From Lapillicoccus sp. (GTDB taxonomy: Bacteria > Actinomycetota > Actinomycetes > Actinomycetales > Dermatophilaceae), in NCBI GenBank assembly GCA_051000455.1, contig JBPCOG010000254.1, positions 1 to 30,644 on the forward strand: a DNA stretch of 30,644 nucleotides. The letters are read 5' to 3'. A program made the position numbers and the translations under genes. Below, piece after piece: positions 1 through 19,543 of this stretch. Position 1 is the stretch's first letter; each line of letters begins with the position of its first letter. The notes under the pieces are model-generated. The model searched no databases and was not told where the DNA came from. It worked only from the letters and a program-made list of their open reading frames with translations.

Positions 1-475
1 AGTGGTGGCTGATCGCGCGCCCGTCCCGGATCGCGCTGTGCAGGCGGCCCCCGACCCGCGCCTGGCTGGGCGGCGCCGGCAGCGGGGCACCGAGGGCGCC
101 GAGGCCCTTCAGCGTCCGGGCGAGCGCAGCAAACGCCGCCGGAGAGGGGCGCAGTCCGTCGAGGCCCCGTGCCCGGGCGACCCGCCACAGATGGGTGAGT
201 GCCTCGTCGAGGTCGCCCTCGACGTCGAGCTCCCCGGTGACGTAGGCCTGGGCGGCGCCGAGCTCGCCCGGGTGCCACATCAGCCGTCGGAGCGCGTCCG
301 GACTGCGCACGAGCACCGCCGGGGCGCCCTCGGGACCGGCGACGGAGCCGTCCCAGGCCGTCAGGCGGACCGGCAGCTCGCCGCGCACGAGCGGGCGCAG
401 CGCCGCCTCGAGCTCCTGGGCGACGCCCGACCGGGTGGGGCTCGCGGCCCGGACACCCGGCTCGAGGCTCGTCAC
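1..475 (-). CDS. Cfa-family (cyclopropane-fatty-acyl-phospholipid synthase-like) SAM-dependent methyltransferase, N-terminal part; runs off the left edge; not in the ORF track
   Basis: Manual translation from GTG 475 (2 nt after the upstream stop at 478): MTSLEPG...ELPVRLTAWDGSVAGPEGAPAVLVRSPDALRRLMWHPGELGAAQAYVTGELDVEGDL...AISHH(Y). These are the typical actinomycete Cfa N-terminal motifs, ending at the start of the HHYD motif. Open to the window edge. Confidence 0.85.
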   Translation of the reverse strand, partial: MTSLEPGVRAASPTRSGVAQELEAALRPLVRGELPVRLTAWDGSVAGPEGAPAVLVRSPDALRRLMWHPGELGAAQAYVTGELDVEGDLDEALTHLWRVARARGLDGLRPSPAAFAALARTLKGLGALGAPLPAPPSQARVGGRLHSAIRDGRAISHH

Positions 476-477
476 GG

Positions 478-1818
478 TCAGGCCGTCGCGACGCGGGACA
501 GGACGACCTGCTGGACGTCGAGGTAGCCGGAGGAGAACCCGGCGCGGGAGTACTCGAGGTAGAAGTGCCACATCCGGGTGAAGACCTCGTCGAAGCCGAG
601 CCGGGAGATGTCCTCGCGGCGGGAGCTGAACCGCTCGTCCCACAGGCGCAGCGTCTGGGCGTAGTGCTGGCCCATGGAGAGCCGGTCGGTCACCCGCAGC
701 GAGGTGTGGCGGCGGGTGATGTCGAGGATCGCCTCGGTCGAGGGCAGGAAGCCGCCGGGGAAGATGTACTTGTGCACCCAGGTGTAGGTGCCCTTCGTCG
801 CCAGCATCCGGTCGTGCGGCATCGTGATCGCCTGGATGGCGACCGTCCCCCCGGGCGCGAGCAGGCGGTCGATCGTCTCGAAGTAGGTCCGCCAGTACTC
901 GTGCCCGACCGCCTCGATCATCTCCACCGAGACGATGGCGTCGTACTGCCCGTTGACCTTGCGGTAGTCGAGCAGGTCGACCTGCACCTGCTCGGCGTAG
1001 CCGGCGTCGGCGATCCGTTCCCGCGCGAGCGCCTGCTGCTCGACGGACAGCGTCACCGTGCGGACGGTTGCCCCGCGGGCGGCGGCCCGGATCGCGAGCT
1101 CGCCCCAGCCGGTGCCGATCTCGAGCACCCGGGTGCCGGCAGCGACGCCGGCGTCGTCGAGCAGCCGCTCGATCTTGCGTCGCTGCGCGTCGGCGAGGTC
1201 GGCCCAGATCGGCTCTGCCACAGGCCCTTCCGCAATCGTGCATCGCTCTCCGGCGAGTCCCTCGCCCGGTATGCTCGGGGTGTCGAACAGGCCGGACGAG
1301 TAGCTGAGCGTCTCGTCGAGGAACTGCTCGAACATCTCGTTGGACAGGTCGTAGTGGCGCGAGATGTTCGACCGGGTGTTGACGGTCGTGTTCTTCTCGC
1401 TACGGGGGTGGCGGGCGACATAGAGCGTGCGCAGCTTCTGCAGCGGCTCGGGCACCAAGGTCGCCATCCGCGCCGCGAAGACGCTCAGCAGGCCGGCGAG
1501 GTCCGGTGCACTCCAGTCGCCGGCCATGTAGGACTCGCCGAAGCCGATGAGGCCGCCGGAGCCCACCCGCGCGGCGAAAGCCTCCGGACGGTGCATCACC
1601 ATCACGGGTGCCTGCGGGTCGTGCGCGGCCGCCCCGAGGACGGTGCCGTCGGGCAGCTCCACGCGCACCTGCAGCCGGGCCGCGACCTGGCGGAACAGCT
1701 TGTCGGCCACCTTGCTGTGGATACGCCGGTTCAGGCCCCTCGGGTAGCGGGCCAGGTCCGGCCACCCGCTGAGGTCGATGGATGGGGAATGCTGGGAGGA
1801 GACCGAGATGGTGCTCAC
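478..1818 (-). CDS. Cfa-family SAM-dependent fatty-acyl methyltransferase (UfaA1/Rv0447c-like)
   Basis: Motifs GFGESYMAGDW, NISRHYDLSNEMF, VLEIGTGWG, DAIVSVEMIEAVG, YIFPGG, F.RMW.FYL.Y. Start moved to GTG 1818, which forms a GTGA overlap with the DUF1365 stop (446 aa). Confidence 0.9.
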   Translation of the reverse strand: MSTISVSSQHSPSIDLSGWPDLARYPRGLNRRIHSKVADKLFRQVAARLQVRVELPDGTVLGAAAHDPQAPVMVMHRPEAFAARVGSGGLIGFGESYMAGDWSAPDLAGLLSVFAARMATLVPEPLQKLRTLYVARHPRSEKNTTVNTRSNISRHYDLSNEMFEQFLDETLSYSSGLFDTPSIPGEGLAGERCTIAEGPVAEPIWADLADAQRRKIERLLDDAGVAAGTRVLEIGTGWGELAIRAAARGATVRTVTLSVEQQALARERIADAGYAEQVQVDLLDYRKVNGQYDAIVSVEMIEAVGHEYWRTYFETIDRLLAPGGTVAIQAITMPHDRMLATKGTYTWVHKYIFPGGFLPSTEAILDITRRHTSLRVTDRLSMGQHYAQTLRLWDERFSSRREDISRLGFDEVFTRMWHFYLEYSRAGFSSGYLDVQQVVLSRVATA

Positions 1819-2549
1819 TGGACTGCCTCCTGGGCGTGGTGCTTCGGTCGGGTCTGGACGGGGAGGCCGCGGGCCCACAGCCGGACGCCCTGCCAGCGGA
1901 TCCTCGTCATGACGACGAACGGCTCCAGGGGCCTGGTCAGTGCGGTGCGCAGCAGGTATGCCGTGCTCGCTGGCCTGGCCCGCCCGTGCAGGACCGCGAC
2001 GAACGGTGGCCGTCCCTCACGCCTGAGGGTCACGCTCACCCGGACCTGCTCCGCCGGTTCCGGCAGGACGAGGTCGTAGTGGCCGTCGACCTCGTTGAAG
2101 GGCGAGACGTAGAGCTGCTTGGGTACCTGCGCCCGACCCGCCGCGTCGGTGCGCACCAGGTAGGCGTGCCGTTCGCCGTAGGTGTTGTGCACCTCGAGCA
2201 CGACGCACTCGAGGCGCTGGTCCGTCGTGTAGCACCAGTAGACGGTGATGGGGTTGAAGACGTAGCCCAGAACCCTGGGGTTGGTGAGCATGAGGATCCG
2301 CCCACCGCGCAGGTCGACGTCCTCGGTCGCGAGGAACGCGTCGAGGTTCTCGCGCAGCGTCCGGTCCGGCGCGCCGAGGTGGTCGCGGGCCTCGAAGCGG
2401 GTGAGGCCGCCGAGCACCGGCCCGAGCTGCGGGAGGGCGTCGAGGTCGACCAGCCAGGAGTAGCTGCGGTAGTGGAAGTCGTTGCGCATCGGGTCGACGC
2501 GGACGTGCCTGATGTCGGTCGCGTAGATCCGGGGGGCGGTCGGCATCAT
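1815..2549 (-). CDS. DUF1365 family protein (Rv0448c / UfaO-like)
   Basis: Motifs H.R..P..N.F.Y.SY.WLVDLD, LGYVFNPITVYWC, EVHNTYGERH.Y, K.LYVSPF, RI.WQ..RLW.RG. TGATG overlap with the upstream oxidoreductase; standard position between the FAD oxidoreductase and cfa. Confidence 0.88.
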   Translation of the reverse strand: MMPTAPRIYATDIRHVRVDPMRNDFHYRSYSWLVDLDALPQLGPVLGGLTRFEARDHLGAPDRTLRENLDAFLATEDVDLRGGRILMLTNPRVLGYVFNPITVYWCYTTDQRLECVVLEVHNTYGERHAYLVRTDAAGRAQVPKQLYVSPFNEVDGHYDLVLPEPAEQVRVSVTLRREGRPPFVAVLHGRARPASTAYLLRTALTRPLEPFVVMTRIRWQGVRLWARGLPVQTRPKHHAQEAVQ

Positions 2550-3934
2550 CAGCTCGTTACCAGGTCGGGCTCGCCGGACGGGACCACGCGGTCAACTGTG
2601 ACAGCGTTCCGCGCGCTCGGCGCGTCGTGCCAGCCCACCCCGAGGTGCTCGGCTGCCCGGAGCCCGGACAGCGCGCCGTCCTCATGGAAGCCCCAGCCGT
2701 GGTAGGCGCCGGCGAACGCGAGCCGCGCGGTGTTGATCTCGGGCAGCCGGCGCTGCGCGGCCAGCGACTCGGGCGTGTAGAGGGGGTGCTCGTAGCGCAT
2801 CGTGTCGATGACGGCGTCGGGGTCGACGAGGTCCTCCCCGCCCAGGGTGACGATGAAGCGCCGGTCGGTGACCCCGGTGATCCGCTGGAGCCGGGTCATG
2901 TCGTAGCTGACGAGCACGCGTCCCGGGTCCTCCCCGCTCGGCCGACGCAGGTAGTTCCAGGAGGCACGGGCCCGTTCGTTGCGGGGCAGCACGGACTCGT
3001 CGGTGTGCAGCTGCGCGACGTTGGTGGAGTACGGCATCGCGGCGAGCACGTCGCGCTGGGCGTCGCTCGGGGCGGTGAGCATGGCCAGCGACTGGTGCGG
3101 GTGGGTGGCGATGACCACGGCGGCGAAGGTCTCGCAGCCCCCGCGGGCGTCGGTGACCTCGACGCCACCCTCGACCTCCCGCACGCCGCTGACCGGTGTG
3201 CTGAGCCGCACCTCGTGGAGCAGGGCGGCAACCCGCTCGACATACCGCGCTGACCCGCCGACGACGGTGCGCCAGGTGGGCGAGCCGAGGACGGTGAGCA
3301 TCCCGTGGTGGTCGAGGAAGGTGAACAGGTAGCGGGCCGGGTACTCGAGGGCCACAGCCGGGTCGCAGGACCACACCGCCCCGACGAGCGGGCGCATGAA
3401 GTAGGTGGTGAAGAAGGGCGAGAACCGGCCACGGCGCAGGAAGGTCTGCATGGTCTCGTCGCCGCTCGTGCTGCCGTCCGCGGCGGCCAGGACCCTGCGG
3501 GCCATGCGGTGGAAGCGCAGCACCTCGCCGAGCATCCGCAGGTATGCCGGCCTGCCCAGGTTGCGCGGCTGCGCGAAGATCCCCGCCAGACCCCTGGCAC
3601 CGGCATACTCGAGGCCGATCTCGTCGCAACGCACCGACATGCTCATGTCCGAGTCCTGCGTCTCGACGCCGAGCTCCTCGAAGAGCCGGGTCAGCGTCGG
3701 GTACGTCCGGTCGTTGTGGACGATGAAGCCGGTGTCGACGGCGACGGTGCGCCCGGCCACCGGAACGGCGTGCGTGTGCGCGTGGCCACCGGGGCGGGCG
3801 TCAGCCTCGAAGAGCGTGACGTCGCACCGGCGGGAGAGGACGTAGCCCGCGGTCAGGCCCGCCACACCACTGCCGACCACCGCGACACGGCGCCTGGCCG
3901 CGGCGCTGTTGCAGGTCGATCCGAGTGGGTGCAT
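2549..3934 (-). CDS. FAD/NAD(P)-binding amine-oxidase-family oxidoreductase (Rv0449c / UfaD-like desaturase)
   Basis: Rossmann VAVVGSGVAGL, GGHAHT, VDTGFIVHNDRTYP, HTDESVLP...RASWNY, FAGAY.GWGFHEDG. Start set at ATG 3934 after a GAAGGA RBS and downstream of the SigK-type promoter (ATG 3967 is the alternative). Confidence 0.88.
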   Translation of the reverse strand: MHPLGSTCNSAAARRRVAVVGSGVAGLTAGYVLSRRCDVTLFEADARPGGHAHTHAVPVAGRTVAVDTGFIVHNDRTYPTLTRLFEELGVETQDSDMSMSVRCDEIGLEYAGARGLAGIFAQPRNLGRPAYLRMLGEVLRFHRMARRVLAAADGSTSGDETMQTFLRRGRFSPFFTTYFMRPLVGAVWSCDPAVALEYPARYLFTFLDHHGMLTVLGSPTWRTVVGGSARYVERVAALLHEVRLSTPVSGVREVEGGVEVTDARGGCETFAAVVIATHPHQSLAMLTAPSDAQRDVLAAMPYSTNVAQLHTDESVLPRNERARASWNYLRRPSGEDPGRVLVSYDMTRLQRITGVTDRRFIVTLGGEDLVDPDAVIDTMRYEHPLYTPESLAAQRRLPEINTARLAFAGAYHGWGFHEDGALSGLRAAEHLGVGWHDAPSARNAVTVDRVVPSGEPDLVTS

Positions 3935-3972
3935 GGGTCGCGTTCCTTCGATGGGGTGGTGGCGCAAGGTGG

Positions 3973-3998
3973 TTCGACGCGCAAGGCCCCGTGGATTG
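3973..3998 (-). promoter_or_regulatory. SigK-type ECF promoter (CAATCC-N15-TCGAA) for the oxidoreductase-DUF1365-cfa-cfa operon
   Basis: Minus strand gCAATCC acggggccttgcgcg TCGAAcc. Same boxes and spacing as the sites at 6242-6268 and 7941-7968. Confidence 0.75.
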
Positions 3999-4012
3999 CT
4001 CCACGGGGCCTT
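3983..4012. terminator. Perfect 13-bp inverted repeat (AAGGCCCCGTGGA-ttgc-TCCACGGGGCCTT), probable terminator after rskA
   Basis: Read directly, 46 nt downstream of the rskA stop. No U-tract on the minus (sense) strand, which is common in actinobacteria. Confidence 0.6.
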
Positions 4013-4058
4013 TCAGGGCGTCCCTCGCCCGTCGCCGGACGGGCTGGTCGCCGGACGG

Positions 4059-4829
4059 CTAGGCGAAGCTGAACAGCGCGATCGGCTCGCTGGTCGGGTG
4101 CAGTGACCCGCCCGCGGGCTCGACCGTGATGCCGGCGGCGGTGGCTGCGGCGGCGTCGCCCTCAAGGACGACGGTCTGGTCAGACGCAGGGGGCATCAGA
4201 CCGGCTGGCTTGAAGGTGCCGCTCGGATCCCGCAGCCACGCCTCGTAGACCTTGCCCTCCGGGGGACCGGGCATCTGCTGGGTGACCAGCACCGCGCGTC
4301 CGACCGACTTCGACCGGACGACGGTCGCCGAGGCGCCGTCGGGGAAGGTCTTGGTGGCCCGCTCCGCGTCCGGCGCGTCGAGCACGCGCTGCGCGACCGT
4401 GACCTGGCCTTGGGACTGGCGGTCCCACGGATGCCAGACCGCGGCGCCGCTGATGAGCAGCACGGCCGCCGCCGCTGCAGCGACGAGCCGCGGCATGAAC
4501 CGAGACTGCGCACTGCGGGCGCGGCCCATGCTGGAGCCTTCCATCCGGCGGCGACCCGCGGTCGACTGGATTCGGGCACCGGCCTCGTCGCGAAGCTGCG
4601 GCGCGAGCGGTCGGACCGCGCTGATGTCGCGCAGCACCTGCTCGCGCAGCCGGCGTGGCGGCGTGGCGACCGCGAGCAGGGACAGCAGTTCTGCGGCCTC
4701 CCGCAGGCTCACGACCTCGGCCGCGCACTCCGGGCACAGCTGGAGGTGCTGCTCGAAGCGGGCGCCCTCCAGCTCGTCGACCGCGTCGATGGCGTAGGCG
4801 CCGGAGAGCGAGTGGATGTCGTCGTTCAT
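4059..4829 (-). CDS. rskA: Anti-sigma-K factor RskA with N-terminal zinc-binding (ZAS) motif
   Basis: Start ATG 4829 forms an ATGA overlap with the sigK stop. IHSLSGAYAIDA...EQHLQLCPEC, one TM helix (LVAAAAAAVLLISGAAVW), C-terminal RskA domain (P.GKVYEAW...AG.M...ITVEPAGGS..PT..P). Confidence 0.85.
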   Translation of the reverse strand: MNDDIHSLSGAYAIDAVDELEGARFEQHLQLCPECAAEVVSLREAAELLSLLAVATPPRRLREQVLRDISAVRPLAPQLRDEAGARIQSTAGRRRMEGSSMGRARSAQSRFMPRLVAAAAAAVLLISGAAVWHPWDRQSQGQVTVAQRVLDAPDAERATKTFPDGASATVVRSKSVGRAVLVTQQMPGPPEGKVYEAWLRDPSGTFKPAGLMPPASDQTVVLEGDAAAATAAGITVEPAGGSLHPTSEPIALFSFA

Positions 4830-5437
4830 GACTGAAGTCCCAATGTGTCGCGGAGCCGGATCAGGCCGTCCCGAATTCGTGTCTTGGCCGTTCCGACTGG
4901 AAGGTCGAGCATGGTCGCCACCTCCGTGTGGGTGTAGCCGCCGAAGAATGCGAGCTCCAGGGCGCCGCGCTGGGCTGGGGTGAGGGTGGTCAGTGCCCTG
5001 CGGACGCGCTCGGCGTCGAGTGTGGCGTGCGCGGCCTCTGCCGTTGTGTCGTAGTCCACGTCCTGGTTCGTTTCGTGGTATCCGTGGTCGCGGCGACTCG
5101 CGGCCTCGGCCGAGCGGACACGGTCGACAGCCTTGCGGTGCGCGATCGTCATCATCCAGCTGAGGGCGCTGCCCCGGCCCGGGTCGAACCGGGACGCGGT
5201 GCGCCATATCTCGAGGAACGCCTCCTGGGAGACCTCTTCGGACTGTGCGGGATCGCGGACGACCCGGAGCACCAGCCCGTAGAGCCTGGAGGAGACCTCG
5301 TCGTAGAGCCTGGCAAACGCCGGCTCGTCACCGAGGGACGCCTGCTTGAGCAGGGCGGAGAGCCGCTGGGGCAGGGCGGTCTCCTCCGGCGTGTCATCGC
5401 CGGAGGGGACCGCTCTGAGGTCAGTCATGATCAGCAT
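4826..5437 (-). CDS. sigK: ECF RNA polymerase sigma factor, SigK-type
   Basis: Region 2 (GDEPAFARLYD...SEEVSQEAFLEIWRTASRFDPGRGSALSWMMTIAHRKAVDRVRS) and region 4 (QRGALELAFFGGYTHTEVA.....GTAKTRIRDGL). Adjacent to rskA and a fasciclin gene. The start may be ATG 5428. Confidence 0.88.
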   Translation of the reverse strand: MLIMTDLRAVPSGDDTPEETALPQRLSALLKQASLGDEPAFARLYDEVSSRLYGLVLRVVRDPAQSEEVSQEAFLEIWRTASRFDPGRGSALSWMMTIAHRKAVDRVRSAEAASRRDHGYHETNQDVDYDTTAEAAHATLDAERVRRALTTLTPAQRGALELAFFGGYTHTEVATMLDLPVGTAKTRIRDGLIRLRDTLGLQS

Positions 5438-5477
5438 TGTGCTCGATCATCAGCCCGCTGTCCCAAGAGGGGCTCGA

Positions 5478-6197
5478 TCAGGGAAGCAGGACCGAGTCGA
5501 TGATGTAGACCGTGGCGTTCGCGGTGGGGACGTTGCCGCAGAGGACCTTGGCGCTGTCCTTGCCGACCGTGAAGTCCGTGCCGGAGCCCTTGACCGTGAT
5601 CGTCGTGCCGGCGAGGGTCTTGTGGTCCCCCGCGATCTGGGTCGGGGAGAGCTTGCCGGAGATGACGTGGTTGGTGAGGATCTTCGTCAGGGTCGCCTTG
5701 TCACCCATGACCTTGGTCAGGGTGTCCTTCGGGATCTTGGCGAAGGCGTCGTCGGTCGGGGCGAACACGGTGATCGCCGGAGCGGAGTTCAGGGTGTCAC
5801 CCAGTCCTGCCTGGGTCACGGCAGCGACGAGGGTCTTCAGCAGCGGGTTGTTGCTCGCTGCCGTGGCGACTGGGTCGGTCGCCATGCCGTTGAAGGATCC
5901 CTTGCCGTCCTTGGGCACGAGCGCGCAGCCCGCACCGAAGACCTGCGAGGCAACCGCCGAGCCGCCGGCCGTGCCGGACGACGTCGGGGCGGACGACGAG
6001 CTCGAGCTGGAGCTCTTGGTCGGGGCGGACGACGACGACGAGCTGGACGAGGTCGGGGCGGACGACGAGCTGGTCGCGGCAGGGGCGGCCGGGGCGGCGG
6101 GGGCCGAGCCCGAGCCGGACGAGCCGCCACAGGCGGCGAGGCCGAGGGGCACGGCGGCGGCCAGTGCGATGAGGGCGCTGTTGCGACGGGTGAACAT
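5478..6197 (-). CDS. Fasciclin (FAS1) domain lipoprotein, MPT83/MPT70-like
   Basis: ATG 6197 after AGGAG. Signal MFTRRNSALIALAAAVPLGLAAC (lipobox), Ser-rich linker, then FG.GC..VP...GSF.GMA.DPVATAASNNP.L.TLV.AV..AGL.DTLN....TVFAPTD.AF.K and VLCGNV.TANATVYIIDSVLLP. Confidence 0.92.
   Translation of the reverse strand: MFTRRNSALIALAAAVPLGLAACGGSSGSGSAPAAPAAPAATSSSSAPTSSSSSSSSAPTKSSSSSSSSAPTSSGTAGGSAVASQVFGAGCALVPKDGKGSFNGMATDPVATAASNNPLLKTLVAAVTQAGLGDTLNSAPAITVFAPTDDAFAKIPKDTLTKVMGDKATLTKILTNHVISGKLSPTQIAGDHKTLAGTTITVKGSGTDFTVGKDSAKVLCGNVPTANATVYIIDSVLLP
5983..6069. repeat. Three in-frame copies of GTCGGGGCGGACGACGA(G/C) (5983, 6019, 6052) encoding the SSSSAPT repeats of the linker
   Basis: Read directly; spacings of 36 and 33 nt keep the reading frame. 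Confidence 0.85.
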
Positions 6198-6241
6198 GTC
6201 AGAACTCCTATGAGTTGGGGTCGTGCGACTGTCGGCAGTGG

Positions 6242-6268
6242 TTCGGTGCGGGCGGCCCGGCGGATTGG
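6242..6268 (-). promoter_or_regulatory. SigK-type ECF promoter (CCAATCC-N15-CCGAA) for fasciclin-sigK-rskA
   Basis: Minus strand CCAATCC gccgggccgcccgca CCGAA, 44 nt upstream of ATG 6197. Closely matches the mycobacterial SigK consensus as I recall it (CCATCC-N15-CCGAA). Confidence 0.8.
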
Positions 6269-6316
6269 CGGGCACCGAGGCAATCGCCGCACCCTGCCCG
6301 GCGGTGGGCGGCGGGG

Positions 6317-6364
6317 ACAGCACGGAGCACCGTCGCCCCCACAGCACGGAGCACCTTCGCCCCG
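6317..6364. repeat. 24-bp tandem duplication (ACAGCACGGAGCACC[G/T]TCGCCCC[C/G])
   Basis: 6317-6340 vs 6341-6364, 22/24 identical, intergenic. Confidence 0.85.
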
Positions 6365-6402
6365 TGGGCGCAGGTGCTCGGTCCGTGCCGGGCGGTGAGG
6401 TG

Positions 6403-7932
6403 TCAGGAGACGAAGACGACGACTTCCTGGATCCCGCTGGAACCGCTCGGGAACGGTGTCGCGCGCTGCTCGATCTGGGGTGCGCCGGTGCCGTCGACGG
6501 CCCGCACCGCGATGGAGTGCTGGCCCGTGGCGGCATCCCAGGGGAGGTACCACTGACGCCAGTAGTCGACGCCGGCGTCGGGCCCGAGCTGCGCCGGCTG
6601 CCACTGGCCGCCGTCCACGCGCACCTCGACCCTGCCGACGCCGCGGTGCTGGGCCCAGGCCACCCCGCCGATGGCCGTCCGGCCAGCCTTGATGGTGGAC
6701 AGCGGCTGTGGCGTGTCGACCCGTGCGGAGGTCTTGATCGGTGCGTCGGTGGCCCAGTCCCGCTTGGTCCAGTACGCCTGCTGCGCCGCGTACGTCGTCA
6801 GCGTGAGCTTCGTCAGCCACTTCGTCGCTCCGACGTAGCCGTACAGGCCAGGGGTGATCAGCCGGGCGGGGAAGCCGTGGACGTCGCTGAGCGGCTCACC
6901 GTTCATGCCGATGACGACCATCGCATCGCGCCCGTCACGGACGACGGCGAGCGGGGTGCTGATGGTGAAGCCGTCCACCGCGGTGCTGAGCAGCTGGTCG
7001 GGGCTACCGGTGACACCGGCCCGGTCGAGCAGGTCGGTGACGCGCACCCCCAGCCAGCGGGCGGCGCCGACGTAGTTGCCGCCAACCTCGTTCGACACGC
7101 ACGTCATCGTGATGTCGCGCTCGATGAGCGGCATCGCGGCGATCTCGGCGAACGTGAGCGTCAGCGGGTTCTTCACCTCTCCGTCGATCTGCAGCCGCCA
7201 GCTGTCCTTGGCGACCCGCGGGACGGTCAGGTTCGTGTCGACCCGGTAGAACTCGGCGTTGGGGGTCCGGAACGTGGAGATCCCCGGCACCGTCTGCTCC
7301 AGGCCCATGGGCAGGGCCTTGGCGGGCGCGGCCGCCTGGGGGAGTTCGACGCCGGCCGGGTCGGTCGCCCGGGCTGCGAACCGCTGGCCGGCAGCACCGG
7401 CCACCACGGCGCCCGCGGTGACACCGGCAGCGCCGACGAGGAACTGCCGACGGGAGCTGTGACGACGGGGGTGCGCCTCCGCCGCGTCGCGCAGGCTGCC
7501 CGTGAGCCACCAGAGGACGGCTGCCCCCACGACGCCCGCGGCCAGGGCGGGGAGCAGGTCGCGAGGGCTCGCGGTGGGTCGGGTCATCGCCGCGACCCCG
7601 GCCAGGCCCACCAGGACGACGATGAAGGCGATCCCCACCCCGAGCCGGCGACGGGAGAGGACCCCCGCGGCCGCGGCGAGCACGGCGGTAGCGACGCCCA
7701 CCGAGGCGAGCAGGACCAGCTTGTCGGAGGTGCCGAACTGGGCGATCGCCCACTCCTTGACCGGGGTCGGGGTCAGGTCGATGACCGTGGAGCCGACGGC
7801 GAGGACGGGTGAGACCGCGGGGTTGACGAAGGCTGCGACGAGGTGACCGAGCGCCATCCCGGCCAGGGCCGCGAGGACACCGGCCGCTGCATGGGTCAAG
7901 GTCCTCAGCGGCATTCGTCGCTCATGTGTCAT
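6403..7932 (-). CDS. Membrane-anchored molybdopterin-dependent oxidoreductase (sulfite oxidase/MsrP-YedY family) with internal twin-arginine motif
   Basis: Four N-terminal hydrophobic helices, SRRQFL plus a fifth helix, then TPNAEFYRVD, W.L.IDG.V, TMTCVSN..GG, A.W.GV, MNGEPL...HGFPARL..PGLYG....KWL, and a C-terminal dimerisation domain (GVAWA....V.RVEV..D.G.W..A). The start may be ATG 7914. Confidence 0.88.
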   Translation of the reverse strand: MTHERRMPLRTLTHAAAGVLAALAGMALGHLVAAFVNPAVSPVLAVGSTVIDLTPTPVKEWAIAQFGTSDKLVLLASVGVATAVLAAAAGVLSRRRLGVGIAFIVVLVGLAGVAAMTRPTASPRDLLPALAAGVVGAAVLWWLTGSLRDAAEAHPRRHSSRRQFLVGAAGVTAGAVVAGAAGQRFAARATDPAGVELPQAAAPAKALPMGLEQTVPGISTFRTPNAEFYRVDTNLTVPRVAKDSWRLQIDGEVKNPLTLTFAEIAAMPLIERDITMTCVSNEVGGNYVGAARWLGVRVTDLLDRAGVTGSPDQLLSTAVDGFTISTPLAVVRDGRDAMVVIGMNGEPLSDVHGFPARLITPGLYGYVGATKWLTKLTLTTYAAQQAYWTKRDWATDAPIKTSARVDTPQPLSTIKAGRTAIGGVAWAQHRGVGRVEVRVDGGQWQPAQLGPDAGVDYWRQWYLPWDAATGQHSIAVRAVDGTGAPQIEQRATPFPSGSSGIQEVVVFVS

Positions 7933-7940
7933 AACCGGTG

Positions 7941-7968
7941 TTCGGGGCGGACGCCTGCTCTGGATTGG
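7941..7968 (-). promoter_or_regulatory. SigK-type ECF promoter (CCAATCC-N16-CCGAA) for the Mo-oxidoreductase
   Basis: Minus strand CCAATCC agagcaggcgtccgcc CCGAA, 8 nt before ATG 7932, so the mRNA may be leaderless. Confidence 0.72.
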
Positions 7969-8061
7969 GGACCGCCCGTGCCGCAGCCAACGCGGCGATG
8001 GCGCCCCGGCTACGTCGTCGTCGGTTGTCCCCGGCCGGGGTGGCGCTCGGCTCGGTGCTGG

Positions 8062-9318
8062 TCAGTCCCATCCGCCGCGAGGAGGCCGGCCGACGTCGAG
8101 GGACTGCAGCGCCCGCAGCACGGACGGGTCCTGGGCCTCGAGCCAGTCGACCAGCTGGTGGAACGACACGAACCGGACGTCCGGGTGGGCGGCCATCTCC
8201 CGGATCGCCGCCTCGACGGCCTCCATGTAGATCCCGCCGTTCCACCGTTCGAAGTGGTTGCCGATGACCAAGGGGGCGCGGTTGCCGTGGTAGGCACGGC
8301 GGAACCCGGCGAGGTAGGCGTCCCGGGCCTGGCCGCGCCACACCGCGCGGGCCGCCGGGTCGCCGTCGGGGGTCTTCGACTGGTTGTACATCATGTTGTA
8401 GTCCATCGAGATGACCTCGAAGTCGTGGCCCGGGAACGGAATCGCCTGCATCGGCAGGTTCCACCGGCCACCGGGGAAGCGGGTCGGCCATACCTGTCGG
8501 CCGGTGCCCGAGGAGTCGTACCGCCAGGTCGTGGCCCGGCCGGCCCGCAGGAGGTTGGCCTGGCCCTGCAGGCAGGGCGTTCGGCCCCCGATGAGCTCCG
8601 CGTCGTAGTCGAACGGCAGCGGGGGTAGGTCGGTGAAGCCGGTAGTGGTCCGCCAGGTCTTCACGAACGAGACGGCCTGCTCGATCTCGGTGTCCCACTC
8701 CTCCGGCGACCACAGGTCGACCCCGCCCGGCCCGCAGAAGTGGCCGTTGAAGTGGGTCCCGATCTCGTGGCCCTCCAGCCACGCCCCGCCGACCTGGTCG
8801 ATCGTCGCGTGGACCGACCGCTCGGGGAGGAACCCGATGTCCGAGGCTCCCACGGGGTGTCGCGGCGGTCGGTAGACCGCGCGTCTGGCGGCGGGCACGG
8901 CATACAGGCCGGTGAGGAAGAAGGTCATCGACGCGGACAGCTCCTCGGCGACCCCACGGAAGTGGGAGAACAGGCGCAAGCCGGTCTCCCCGGCGCCGTC
9001 CCAGGAGCAGATGACAAACTGTGGCGGGGCCTGCCCCGGGACCAGCCGGGACACGGTCGGCTGGCGCGGCTGGACACCGGTGTCCGACGTGCTGCCGTCA
9101 CCGATCAGCCGGGGCAGGCCGGTGGGGGCCGTCGGCGACACCGCGCCGGCAGTCGGTCCTGCGCCCGTCGCCGGAGCCGCGGCGGTGGACGTCGGCGCGC
9201 CCGCCGCCTGCGGGCCAGTGCCGGGCGAGGCTGGCCCTTGCTGGGCGCACCCGGTCAACGTGGCGAGCGCCGCGCCGGCACCGGCGCCCAGTACCGCCCT
9301 GCGGCTGACTGGCCTCAC
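8062..9318 (-). CDS. Tat-type lipoprotein with polysaccharide-deacetylase (CE4/NodB-like) domain
   Basis: GTG 9318: VRPVSRRAVLGAGAGAALATLTGC (twin-arginine and lipobox), Pro/Ala/Thr linker, PPQFVICSWDGAGE, MTFFLTGLY, GHEIGTHFNGH, G.RTPCL, YDSS, SMDYN, RAP..IGNHFE.WNGG.Y. The start is uncertain. Confidence 0.72.
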   Translation of the reverse strand: MRPVSRRAVLGAGAGAALATLTGCAQQGPASPGTGPQAAGAPTSTAAAPATGAGPTAGAVSPTAPTGLPRLIGDGSTSDTGVQPRQPTVSRLVPGQAPPQFVICSWDGAGETGLRLFSHFRGVAEELSASMTFFLTGLYAVPAARRAVYRPPRHPVGASDIGFLPERSVHATIDQVGGAWLEGHEIGTHFNGHFCGPGGVDLWSPEEWDTEIEQAVSFVKTWRTTTGFTDLPPLPFDYDAELIGGRTPCLQGQANLLRAGRATTWRYDSSGTGRQVWPTRFPGGRWNLPMQAIPFPGHDFEVISMDYNMMYNQSKTPDGDPAARAVWRGQARDAYLAGFRRAYHGNRAPLVIGNHFERWNGGIYMEAVEAAIREMAAHPDVRFVSFHQLVDWLEAQDPSVLRALQSLDVGRPPRGGWD

Positions 9319-19448: not shown

Positions 19449-19543
19449 GGAGGCGTTTCCCGTCTGGTGACGGGCGCGGTCCTCAAAACCGTAGTGGCCG
19501 GGCATCTCGGCCAGGCGGGTTCGATTCCCGTCCGCCTCCGCCA
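19449..19543 (+). tRNA. selC: tRNA-Sec (anticodon UCA), 95 nt, CCA encoded
   Basis: GGAGGCG/CGCCTCC acceptor stem with discriminator G; 6-bp D stem CCCGTC-TGGT-GACGGG; anticodon arm GCGGT-CCTCAAA-ACCGT; long variable arm TGGCCGG..TCGGCCA; T arm GCGGG-TTCGATT-CCCGT. Lies between selD and selA. Confidence 0.96.

Follow-up and report, generated by a model that had tools for sequence, protein, structure and literature searches.

The first 8 kb of a 30.6-kb stretch of Lapillicoccus sp. DNA form a single row of minus-strand genes, among which are sigK, encoding a sigma factor of the extracytoplasmic function (ECF) type, and rskA, encoding an anti-sigma-K factor. The row also carries three copies of a bipartite box, CAATCC-N15-17-CGAA, that are very probably promoters read by SigK. 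The whole stretch, hereafter referred to as the window, corresponds to contig C366 of a fragmented assembly (2.6 Mb in 457 contigs, 72% G+C, 81% complete), and near-identical DNA is present in sediment, soil, and rock metagenomes. The genes, predicted promoters, and hairpins of the row are the following:

2..3934, minus strand: lipid-modification operon of four genes (amine oxidase, DUF1365, CMAS, CMAS), running off the window
2-475, minus strand: second CMAS-type gene, N-terminus only, 64% identical to the second CMAS gene of L234, the closest relative; continues past the window edge
478-1818/1878, minus strand: CMAS-type methyltransferase 1 gene, with two possible starts
1815-2549, minus strand: DUF1365 gene
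2549-3934, minus strand: flavin adenine dinucleotide (FAD) amine oxidase gene
3973..3998, minus strand: P_amOx, predicted SigK promoter; -35 CAATCC at 3998-3993, 16-nt spacer, -10 CGAACCAC from 3976
3983..4012, minus strand: perfect 13-bp hairpin with a GCAA loop, about 45 nt past the rskA stop codon
4059..4829, minus strand: rskA, anti-sigma-K factor gene (RskA_C, 3.7e-24, 86 bits; NF052375, 186 bits)
4826..5437, minus strand: sigK, ECF sigma factor of 203 aa (NF007228, 4NQW_A)
5478..6197, minus strand: gene for a fasciclin-domain secreted protein or lipoprotein, homologue of Mpt70/Mpt83 (PF02469, 6.7e-30)
6242..6268, minus strand: P_fas, predicted SigK promoter; -35 CAATCC at 6267-6262, 16-nt spacer, -10 CGAACCACTG from 6245
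6342..6392, minus strand: long GC-rich hairpin just past the stop codon of the next gene, terminator-like, without a U tract
6403..7932, minus strand: gene for a membrane-anchored molybdopterin oxidoreductase (hereafter Mo-oxidoreductase), 509 aa with a sulfite-oxidase/MsrP-like domain (PF00174, 2.1e-39); single-gene unit
7941..7968, minus strand: P_moco, predicted SigK promoter; -35 CAATCC at 7967-7962, 17-nt spacer, -10 core CGAA at 7944-7941

The pattern matches the window exactly three times, always on the minus strand (3973-3998, 6242-6267, and 7941-7967), versus 0.04 matches expected from 100 dinucleotide shuffles, none of which reached three. The hexamer is separated from CGAA by 16, 16, and 17 nt, respectively, and every box is intergenic and oriented toward a gene. 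The boxes are non-palindromic and bipartite, they lie on the same strand as the downstream genes, and they stand 9-45 nt from the start codons. The amine oxidase ATG (3934) is 39 nt past the last A of CGAA and has a GAAGGA ribosome site, while the fasciclin ATG (6197), preceded by AGGAG, is 45 nt past it. For the Mo-oxidoreductase gene, the earliest ATG available (7932) comes only 9 nt after CGAA, so that its mRNA probably has little or no leader; in L234, where the start codon of this gene was called independently, the distance is 10 nt. A preliminary description of this DNA had placed three such boxes on the minus strand just upstream of transcription units, with spacings of N15, N15, and N16 counted up to T/CCGAA; the positions and the strand were recovered by the pattern scan, and the strings and spacings are correct as they were read. 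A scan of positions 300-8300 for consensus sigma-70 promoters and terminators returned nothing relevant.

SigK itself passes the NCBIfam model NF007228 (258.6 bits for a cut-off of 226, the next model reaching 126 bits). Its best match in the PDB is 4NQW_A, the SigK of Mycobacterium tuberculosis (E = 1.4e-46), followed by 2Q1Z, the RpoE of R. sphaeroides (6.8e-24), and its homologues from Lapillicoccus, Terrabacter, and Intrasporangium are 73-78% identical. In the alignment to 4NQW_A, Ala and Thr occupy the positions of the Cys133/Cys183 disulfide of M. tuberculosis SigK. This cysteine pair is present in 94% of ECF18 and 56% of ECF19 members (PMC7509140), and, since it is frequent but not universal, its absence does not exclude SigK membership. 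Cysteine-free SigK was described as a minority state, with RskA absent or truncated in 23% of the cases versus 2% for cysteine-bearing SigK (Veyrier 2020; PMC7509140). RskA is full length here, with weak RskA_N and zf-HC2 matches, and a single RskA_C protein and a single SigK-like sigma factor are found in the 81% complete assembly.

The sigK stop codon and the rskA start overlap (ATGA), and the two genes are inferred to be co-transcribed. Upstream, the 40-nt gap between the fasciclin gene and sigK contains neither a box nor a significant hairpin (z = -0.4), and at least seven relatives show the same order, fasciclin-sigK-rskA with a box upstream of the fasciclin gene. Where sigK is instead the first gene, as in nine relatives, the box directly precedes it. 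If P_fas drives fasciclin-sigK-rskA, SigK would positively control its own synthesis; autoregulation through the fasciclin promoter, already put forward in the preliminary description, is thus plausible given the short gap without a significant hairpin, the ATGA overlap, and the position of the box where sigK leads.

Conservation of the box at the sigK loci of relatives

The comparison covered about 20 kb around sigK in 20 genomes of the same family or order, to which were added the locus of L234, with the same gene order and a SigK 81% identical, and three named mycobacteria, found via a groEL1 primer (PMC7509140) and then searched for sigK and fasciclin genes. A C[A/C]ATCC-N16/17-CGAA box precedes the Mo-oxidoreductase, fasciclin, amine oxidase, DUF1365, or sigK gene in nearly all of these genomes (about 25), and the motif accompanies sigK in every one of them, across several families and two orders. 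The 40 sites compiled from this set, including two or three within genes that are probably chance matches, read CAATCC in 22 cases, CCATCC in 17, and TCATCC in one. Their spacer is 16 nt long in 32 and 17 nt in eight, seven of the latter being Mo-oxidoreductase promoters; the longer spacer is found in 7 of 10 promoters of Mo-oxidoreductase orthologues. In its extended form, the consensus reads (C)C[A/C]ATCC(G)-N16/17-(GCnC)CGAA[C/T](cAC). L234 uses CAATCC at all three sites and, in alignments of the window to this relative, only the two elements of the box, -35 and -10, are kept, spacers and leaders having diverged.

The motif, its statistics, its position, and its conservation are direct observations. 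They argue strongly, as does the identity of the sigma factor (the NF007228 match and 4NQW as best structural match), for the boxes being promoters read by SigK, as first proposed, and the three local units very probably represent the conserved core of a dispersed SigK regulon.

Sites elsewhere in the genome

Genome-wide, CAATCC-N15-17-CGAA has nine matches, three in the window and six on other contigs. All nine are intergenic according to a crude GC3-based gene caller, which left 12.6% of the assembly non-coding. The reversed pattern, used as a control, matches once, in coding sequence, and 60 hexamer permutations of the same composition give a mean of 1.0 intergenic match, CAATCC being the highest with nine. 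There are 96 CAATCC hexamers in the genome, 41 of them intergenic, among which 0.35 would be expected to be followed by a suitably spaced CGAA. The corresponding Poisson P is 1.5e-10, or 1.2e-6 if the six distant sites are taken on their own. A position weight matrix (PWM) was trained exclusively on sigK-locus sites of relatives, leaving out those of the present genome. Seven intergenic CAATCC sites of the genome come first in its ranking, four of which are outside the window; P_fas, with a score of 30.2, is joint second. The distant sites are the following:

C118 site: followed by a leader of about 110 nt with a 10-bp GC hairpin at its end, the gene further downstream encoding a T2SSE-type ATPase; PWM score 30.8
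C99 site: followed by the gene for a CYTH-CHAD protein; PWM score 30.2, equal to the fasciclin promoter
C289 site: followed by an alpha/beta hydrolase gene
C305 site: followed by the gene for an AhpC/TSA (Bcp-type) peroxiredoxin
C369 site: followed by DUF7455, then DUF456
C151 site: followed by the gene for a protein with a signal-peptide-like N-terminus; 15-nt spacer

Relatives show a similar dispersion. Five of them carry between one and nine CAATCC-N16/17-CGAAY sites each, i.e., 25 in total, 20 of which are intergenic, for a total of two with the reversed control. These sites precede, for example, an amine oxidase gene away from sigK, DUF7455, another ECF sigma gene, or genes for a cupredoxin, an acyltransferase, a ferritin-like protein, and a TatC fragment. 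The DUF7455 site is kept in two other genera (G019 and G021). A metagenome contig from the same species (97% identity) has retained the peroxiredoxin box, with a spacer that carries two changes. The peroxiredoxin homologues next in similarity (54-68%) are on three further metagenome contigs (L261, L262, and L274), where they immediately follow CMAS-DUF1295, with a gap of about 28 nt. This arrangement independently supports the link between the peroxiredoxin and the regulon, and suggests that, in other actinobacteria, the SigK-type lipid operon repeatedly ends with a Bcp-type peroxiredoxin gene.

The C118 box (G000:C118:10441-10600; L002 3442-3600) is the highest-scoring SigK-type box of the genome. 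Its 10-bp GC hairpin, which has a weak T tail, is located about 100 nt past the box and more than 200 nt before the T2SSE ATPase gene, an arrangement that may correspond to a short SigK-dependent transcript or to an attenuated leader. A structured small RNA was considered for the region downstream of the box and rejected, its overall fold being no better than that of shuffles (z = -0.04). A weaker intergenic candidate, CAACCC-N16-CGAAT (PWM score 17.2), is present at G000:C420:587-612 (+). In one of the relatives (L240, G019:C11:26976-30003), CAATCC-N17-CGAAT stands before a second ECF sigma gene, whose product is 26% identical to SigK, and this may reflect a sigma cascade.

Proposed mechanism and rival readings

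In the model that we propose, RskA would release or activate SigK, and the SigK holoenzyme would then transcribe the three adjacent minus-strand units. The identity of the sigma factor that reads the boxes, the start sites, co-transcription, and induction are here inferred from sequence. The first unit would consist of the Mo-oxidoreductase gene, with its probably leaderless mRNA, and would end at the GC hairpin of 6342-6392. This hairpin appears in the fold of 6265-6405 (z = -2.1) and was not called by a simple terminator scan. A 24-nt tandem repeat (two copies, 95% match) is located at 6317-6363, between the Mo-oxidoreductase gene and the fasciclin promoter, and a strain about 98.5% identical (run X16) has one extra copy of it, as a 24-nt insertion behind 6315.

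The second unit, fasciclin-sigK-rskA, would provide both positive feedback and a built-in resupply of the anti-sigma factor. Its transcript probably ends at the 3983-4012 hairpin, in a region whose fold (z = -4.0) was equalled by none of 200 shuffles. The fasciclin protein has a low-complexity linker, and the part of the gene encoding it contains repeats. The third unit would be the amine oxidase-DUF1365-CMAS-CMAS lipid-modification operon, whose -35 box in P_amOx sits in the loop and 3' arm of the 3983-4012 hairpin; in L234, where this hairpin and the overlap are absent, the boxes are kept. The same box would additionally serve at least five to six further units on other contigs.

The preliminary description had gone further on two points, considering the three promoters to be the entire SigK regulon, self-contained within about 8 kb, and CAATCC to reflect an altered -35 specificity of the SigK of this lineage, as opposed to CCATCC. 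This now appears unlikely. The three local sites are real and clustered, and all nine sites of the genome, as well as the three of L234, read CAATCC, whereas none of the 28 CCATCC-N15-17-CGAA matches of the genome is among the intergenic hits of the pattern and PWM scans. However, the regulon is not self-contained, since the genome-wide scan, which the same description had suggested as a check, finds six more intergenic and co-oriented sites, on C99, C118, C151, C289, C305, and C369. Two of these equal or exceed the fasciclin promoter when scored by a matrix built from other genomes, and relatives likewise carry up to nine sites each, versus 0-2 for the control pattern. Nor does the hexamer follow the lineage: CAATCC and CCATCC are found side by side, before different SigK-locus genes of one genome, in L033, L036, L038, and L040, and CAATCC is used by a mycobacterium, Mycobacterium sp. 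PSTR-4-N, before DUF1365-sigK-rskA. In Mycolicibacterium iranicum, CCATCC precedes DUF1365-sigK-rskA, and in M. kyorinense, CCATCC precedes the first fasciclin gene and CGATCC the second. Judging from these sequences, the second position of the hexamer is degenerate, and the exclusive use of CAATCC here and in L234 is a local habit rather than altered recognition. Clustering in one block is not peculiar to this lineage either, as M. kyorinense E861 (L222, G041:C87:57000-76900) has sigK-rskA, CMAS, DUF1365, amine oxidase, and two fasciclin (mpt83/mpt70-like) genes within about 8 kb, so that the two loci of M. tuberculosis are contiguous in this slow-growing mycobacterium.

Two other explanations of the boxes themselves have to be weighed. 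They could be read by a different ECF sigma factor, sigK being merely one of its targets; the genome indeed encodes seven further ECF-like sigmas, and related ECF groups share the ATCC core of the -35 (TGATCC-N16-CGTA; PMC5507510). This is very unlikely, however: these seven are at most 29% identical to SigK, without a close paralogue among them, the motif is found together with sigK across about 25 genomes and stands directly before it where sigK leads the operon, and SigK-dependent promoters have been reported before mycobacterial fasciclin genes (PMC9861118). That the boxes are operators for a repressor or an activator, or chance matches in GC-rich DNA, is hardly credible. The amine oxidase -35 box does lie inside a perfect hairpin, a possible protein- or RNA-level element, and the start sites are predicted here rather than mapped. 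Yet the motif is bipartite, non-palindromic, and strand-specific, with a spacing fixed at 16-17 nt and a distance of 9-45 nt to the start codons; the boxes, but not the hairpin, are kept in L234, and the shuffles and genome-wide statistics exclude chance.

Promoters read by SigK, with a dispersed regulon, are therefore the preferred reading, against which several points nonetheless weigh, beginning with the seven other ECF-like sigmas just mentioned. Public RNA runs were searched for the locus and none contains this DNA, and four runs of undeclared kind, once mapped, gave DNA-like contigs of the strain about 98.5% identical, whose ends do not accumulate at any position. Most of the six distant sites are not kept in genus-level relatives, where the homologues of the CYTH-CHAD protein and of the peroxiredoxin have no box before them, and the C151 site is the weakest of all, with a poor score. 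Furthermore, the promoters of mycobacteria were compared in three genomes, those of M. kyorinense, Mycobacterium sp. PSTR-4-N, and Mycolicibacterium iranicum.

Relation to known systems and possible role of the regulon

In the M. tuberculosis complex, SigK-RskA correspond to Rv0445c/Rv0444c, with Rv0449c-Rv0446c and mpt83-dipZ-mpt70 as targets. The Lapillicoccus locus has the same sigma and anti-sigma families and the same targets, namely fasciclin and amine oxidase-DUF1365-CMAS, and sigK appears to be autoregulated in both. The lipid operon of L234 extends further with DUF1295, which we take to be the family of M. tuberculosis Rv0446c. The promoter is also of the type seen in the named mycobacteria, CCATCC/CGATCC/CAATCC-N16-CGAAT. 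SigK dependence has been reported for the fasciclin genes mpt70 and mpt83 and for the sigK locus (PMC4105308; PMC7509140; PMC9861118), with eleven genes under SigK control (PMC7509140) and a SigK-dependent promoter of its own for each of mpt83, mpt70, and dipZ (PMC9861118). The gene order differs from that of the M. tuberculosis complex, as fasciclin here precedes sigK-rskA and the lipid operon follows. In contrast to M. tuberculosis, SigK here lacks the redox cysteine pair while being paired with a full-length RskA, and the predicted extra targets are the peroxiredoxin, CYTH-CHAD, hydrolase, and DUF7455 genes. The Mo-oxidoreductase is an additional conserved core target, which is not beside sigK in the three mycobacteria examined; its matches to SoxC, SorA, and MsrP models are below cut-off.

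A second point of comparison is the RpoE-ChrR type, with its TGATCC-N16-CGTA promoter, a core regulon of amine oxidase, RSP1090, and cfaS homologues, and a dispersed periphery that includes oxidative-stress genes and an esterase (PMC5507510). The ATCC core of the -35, the 16-nt spacer, and the lipid module are common to the present system and to this type (R. sphaeroides RpoE; P. syringae PSPTO_1043). In contrast, the -10 is CGAA[C/T] here versus CGTA there, the anti-sigma factor is the membrane protein RskA here versus the cupin ChrR there, and no photolyase gene was seen in the sigK gene row or after any predicted site. Pairing with an RskA-type anti-sigma factor, as described for ECF18 and ECF19 sigmas (PMC7826278; PMC7509140), is shared with that clade. 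On sequence grounds, the locus is a SigK/RskA regulon of the ECF18/19 type with the usual promoter and the usual fasciclin and lipid targets, i.e., it is ordinary in kind.

What the regulon is for can be approached more tentatively, with a reading to which we would give slightly less than an even chance. In this Dermatophilaceae/Intrasporangiaceae-like lineage, the cysteine-free SigK might command a dispersed regulon directed at the envelope and oxidative damage. Its core would comprise the leaderless Mo-oxidoreductase, possibly devoted to MsrP-like repair of oxidised exported proteins, the fasciclin protein, and an operon for furan/cyclopropane-type lipids. The Bcp-type peroxiredoxin, CYTH-CHAD, alpha/beta hydrolase, and DUF7455-DUF456 genes, together with the hairpin-ended transcript upstream of the secretion ATPase gene, would form its variable periphery. 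If true, the dispersed regulon would point to oxidative envelope damage as the SigK signal; the conserved Mo-oxidoreductase partner and the peroxiredoxin, whether behind its own box or at the end of a CMAS-DUF1295 operon, both point in this direction. As to what SigK-RskA senses in mycobacteria, and what its fasciclin targets, the MPT70/MPT83 antigens, do there, environmental relatives with a regulon that can be read from sequence give hints. More generally, a cluster of boxes around a sigma gene marks the core of a regulon and not its boundary, and only a genome-wide scan shows its extent.

Finally, an Rfam search returned no match at the promoters, the hairpins, or the C118 leader; its sole match in the window is a tRNA-Sec gene at 19449-19539 (+), identified with RF01852 (79.8 bits).

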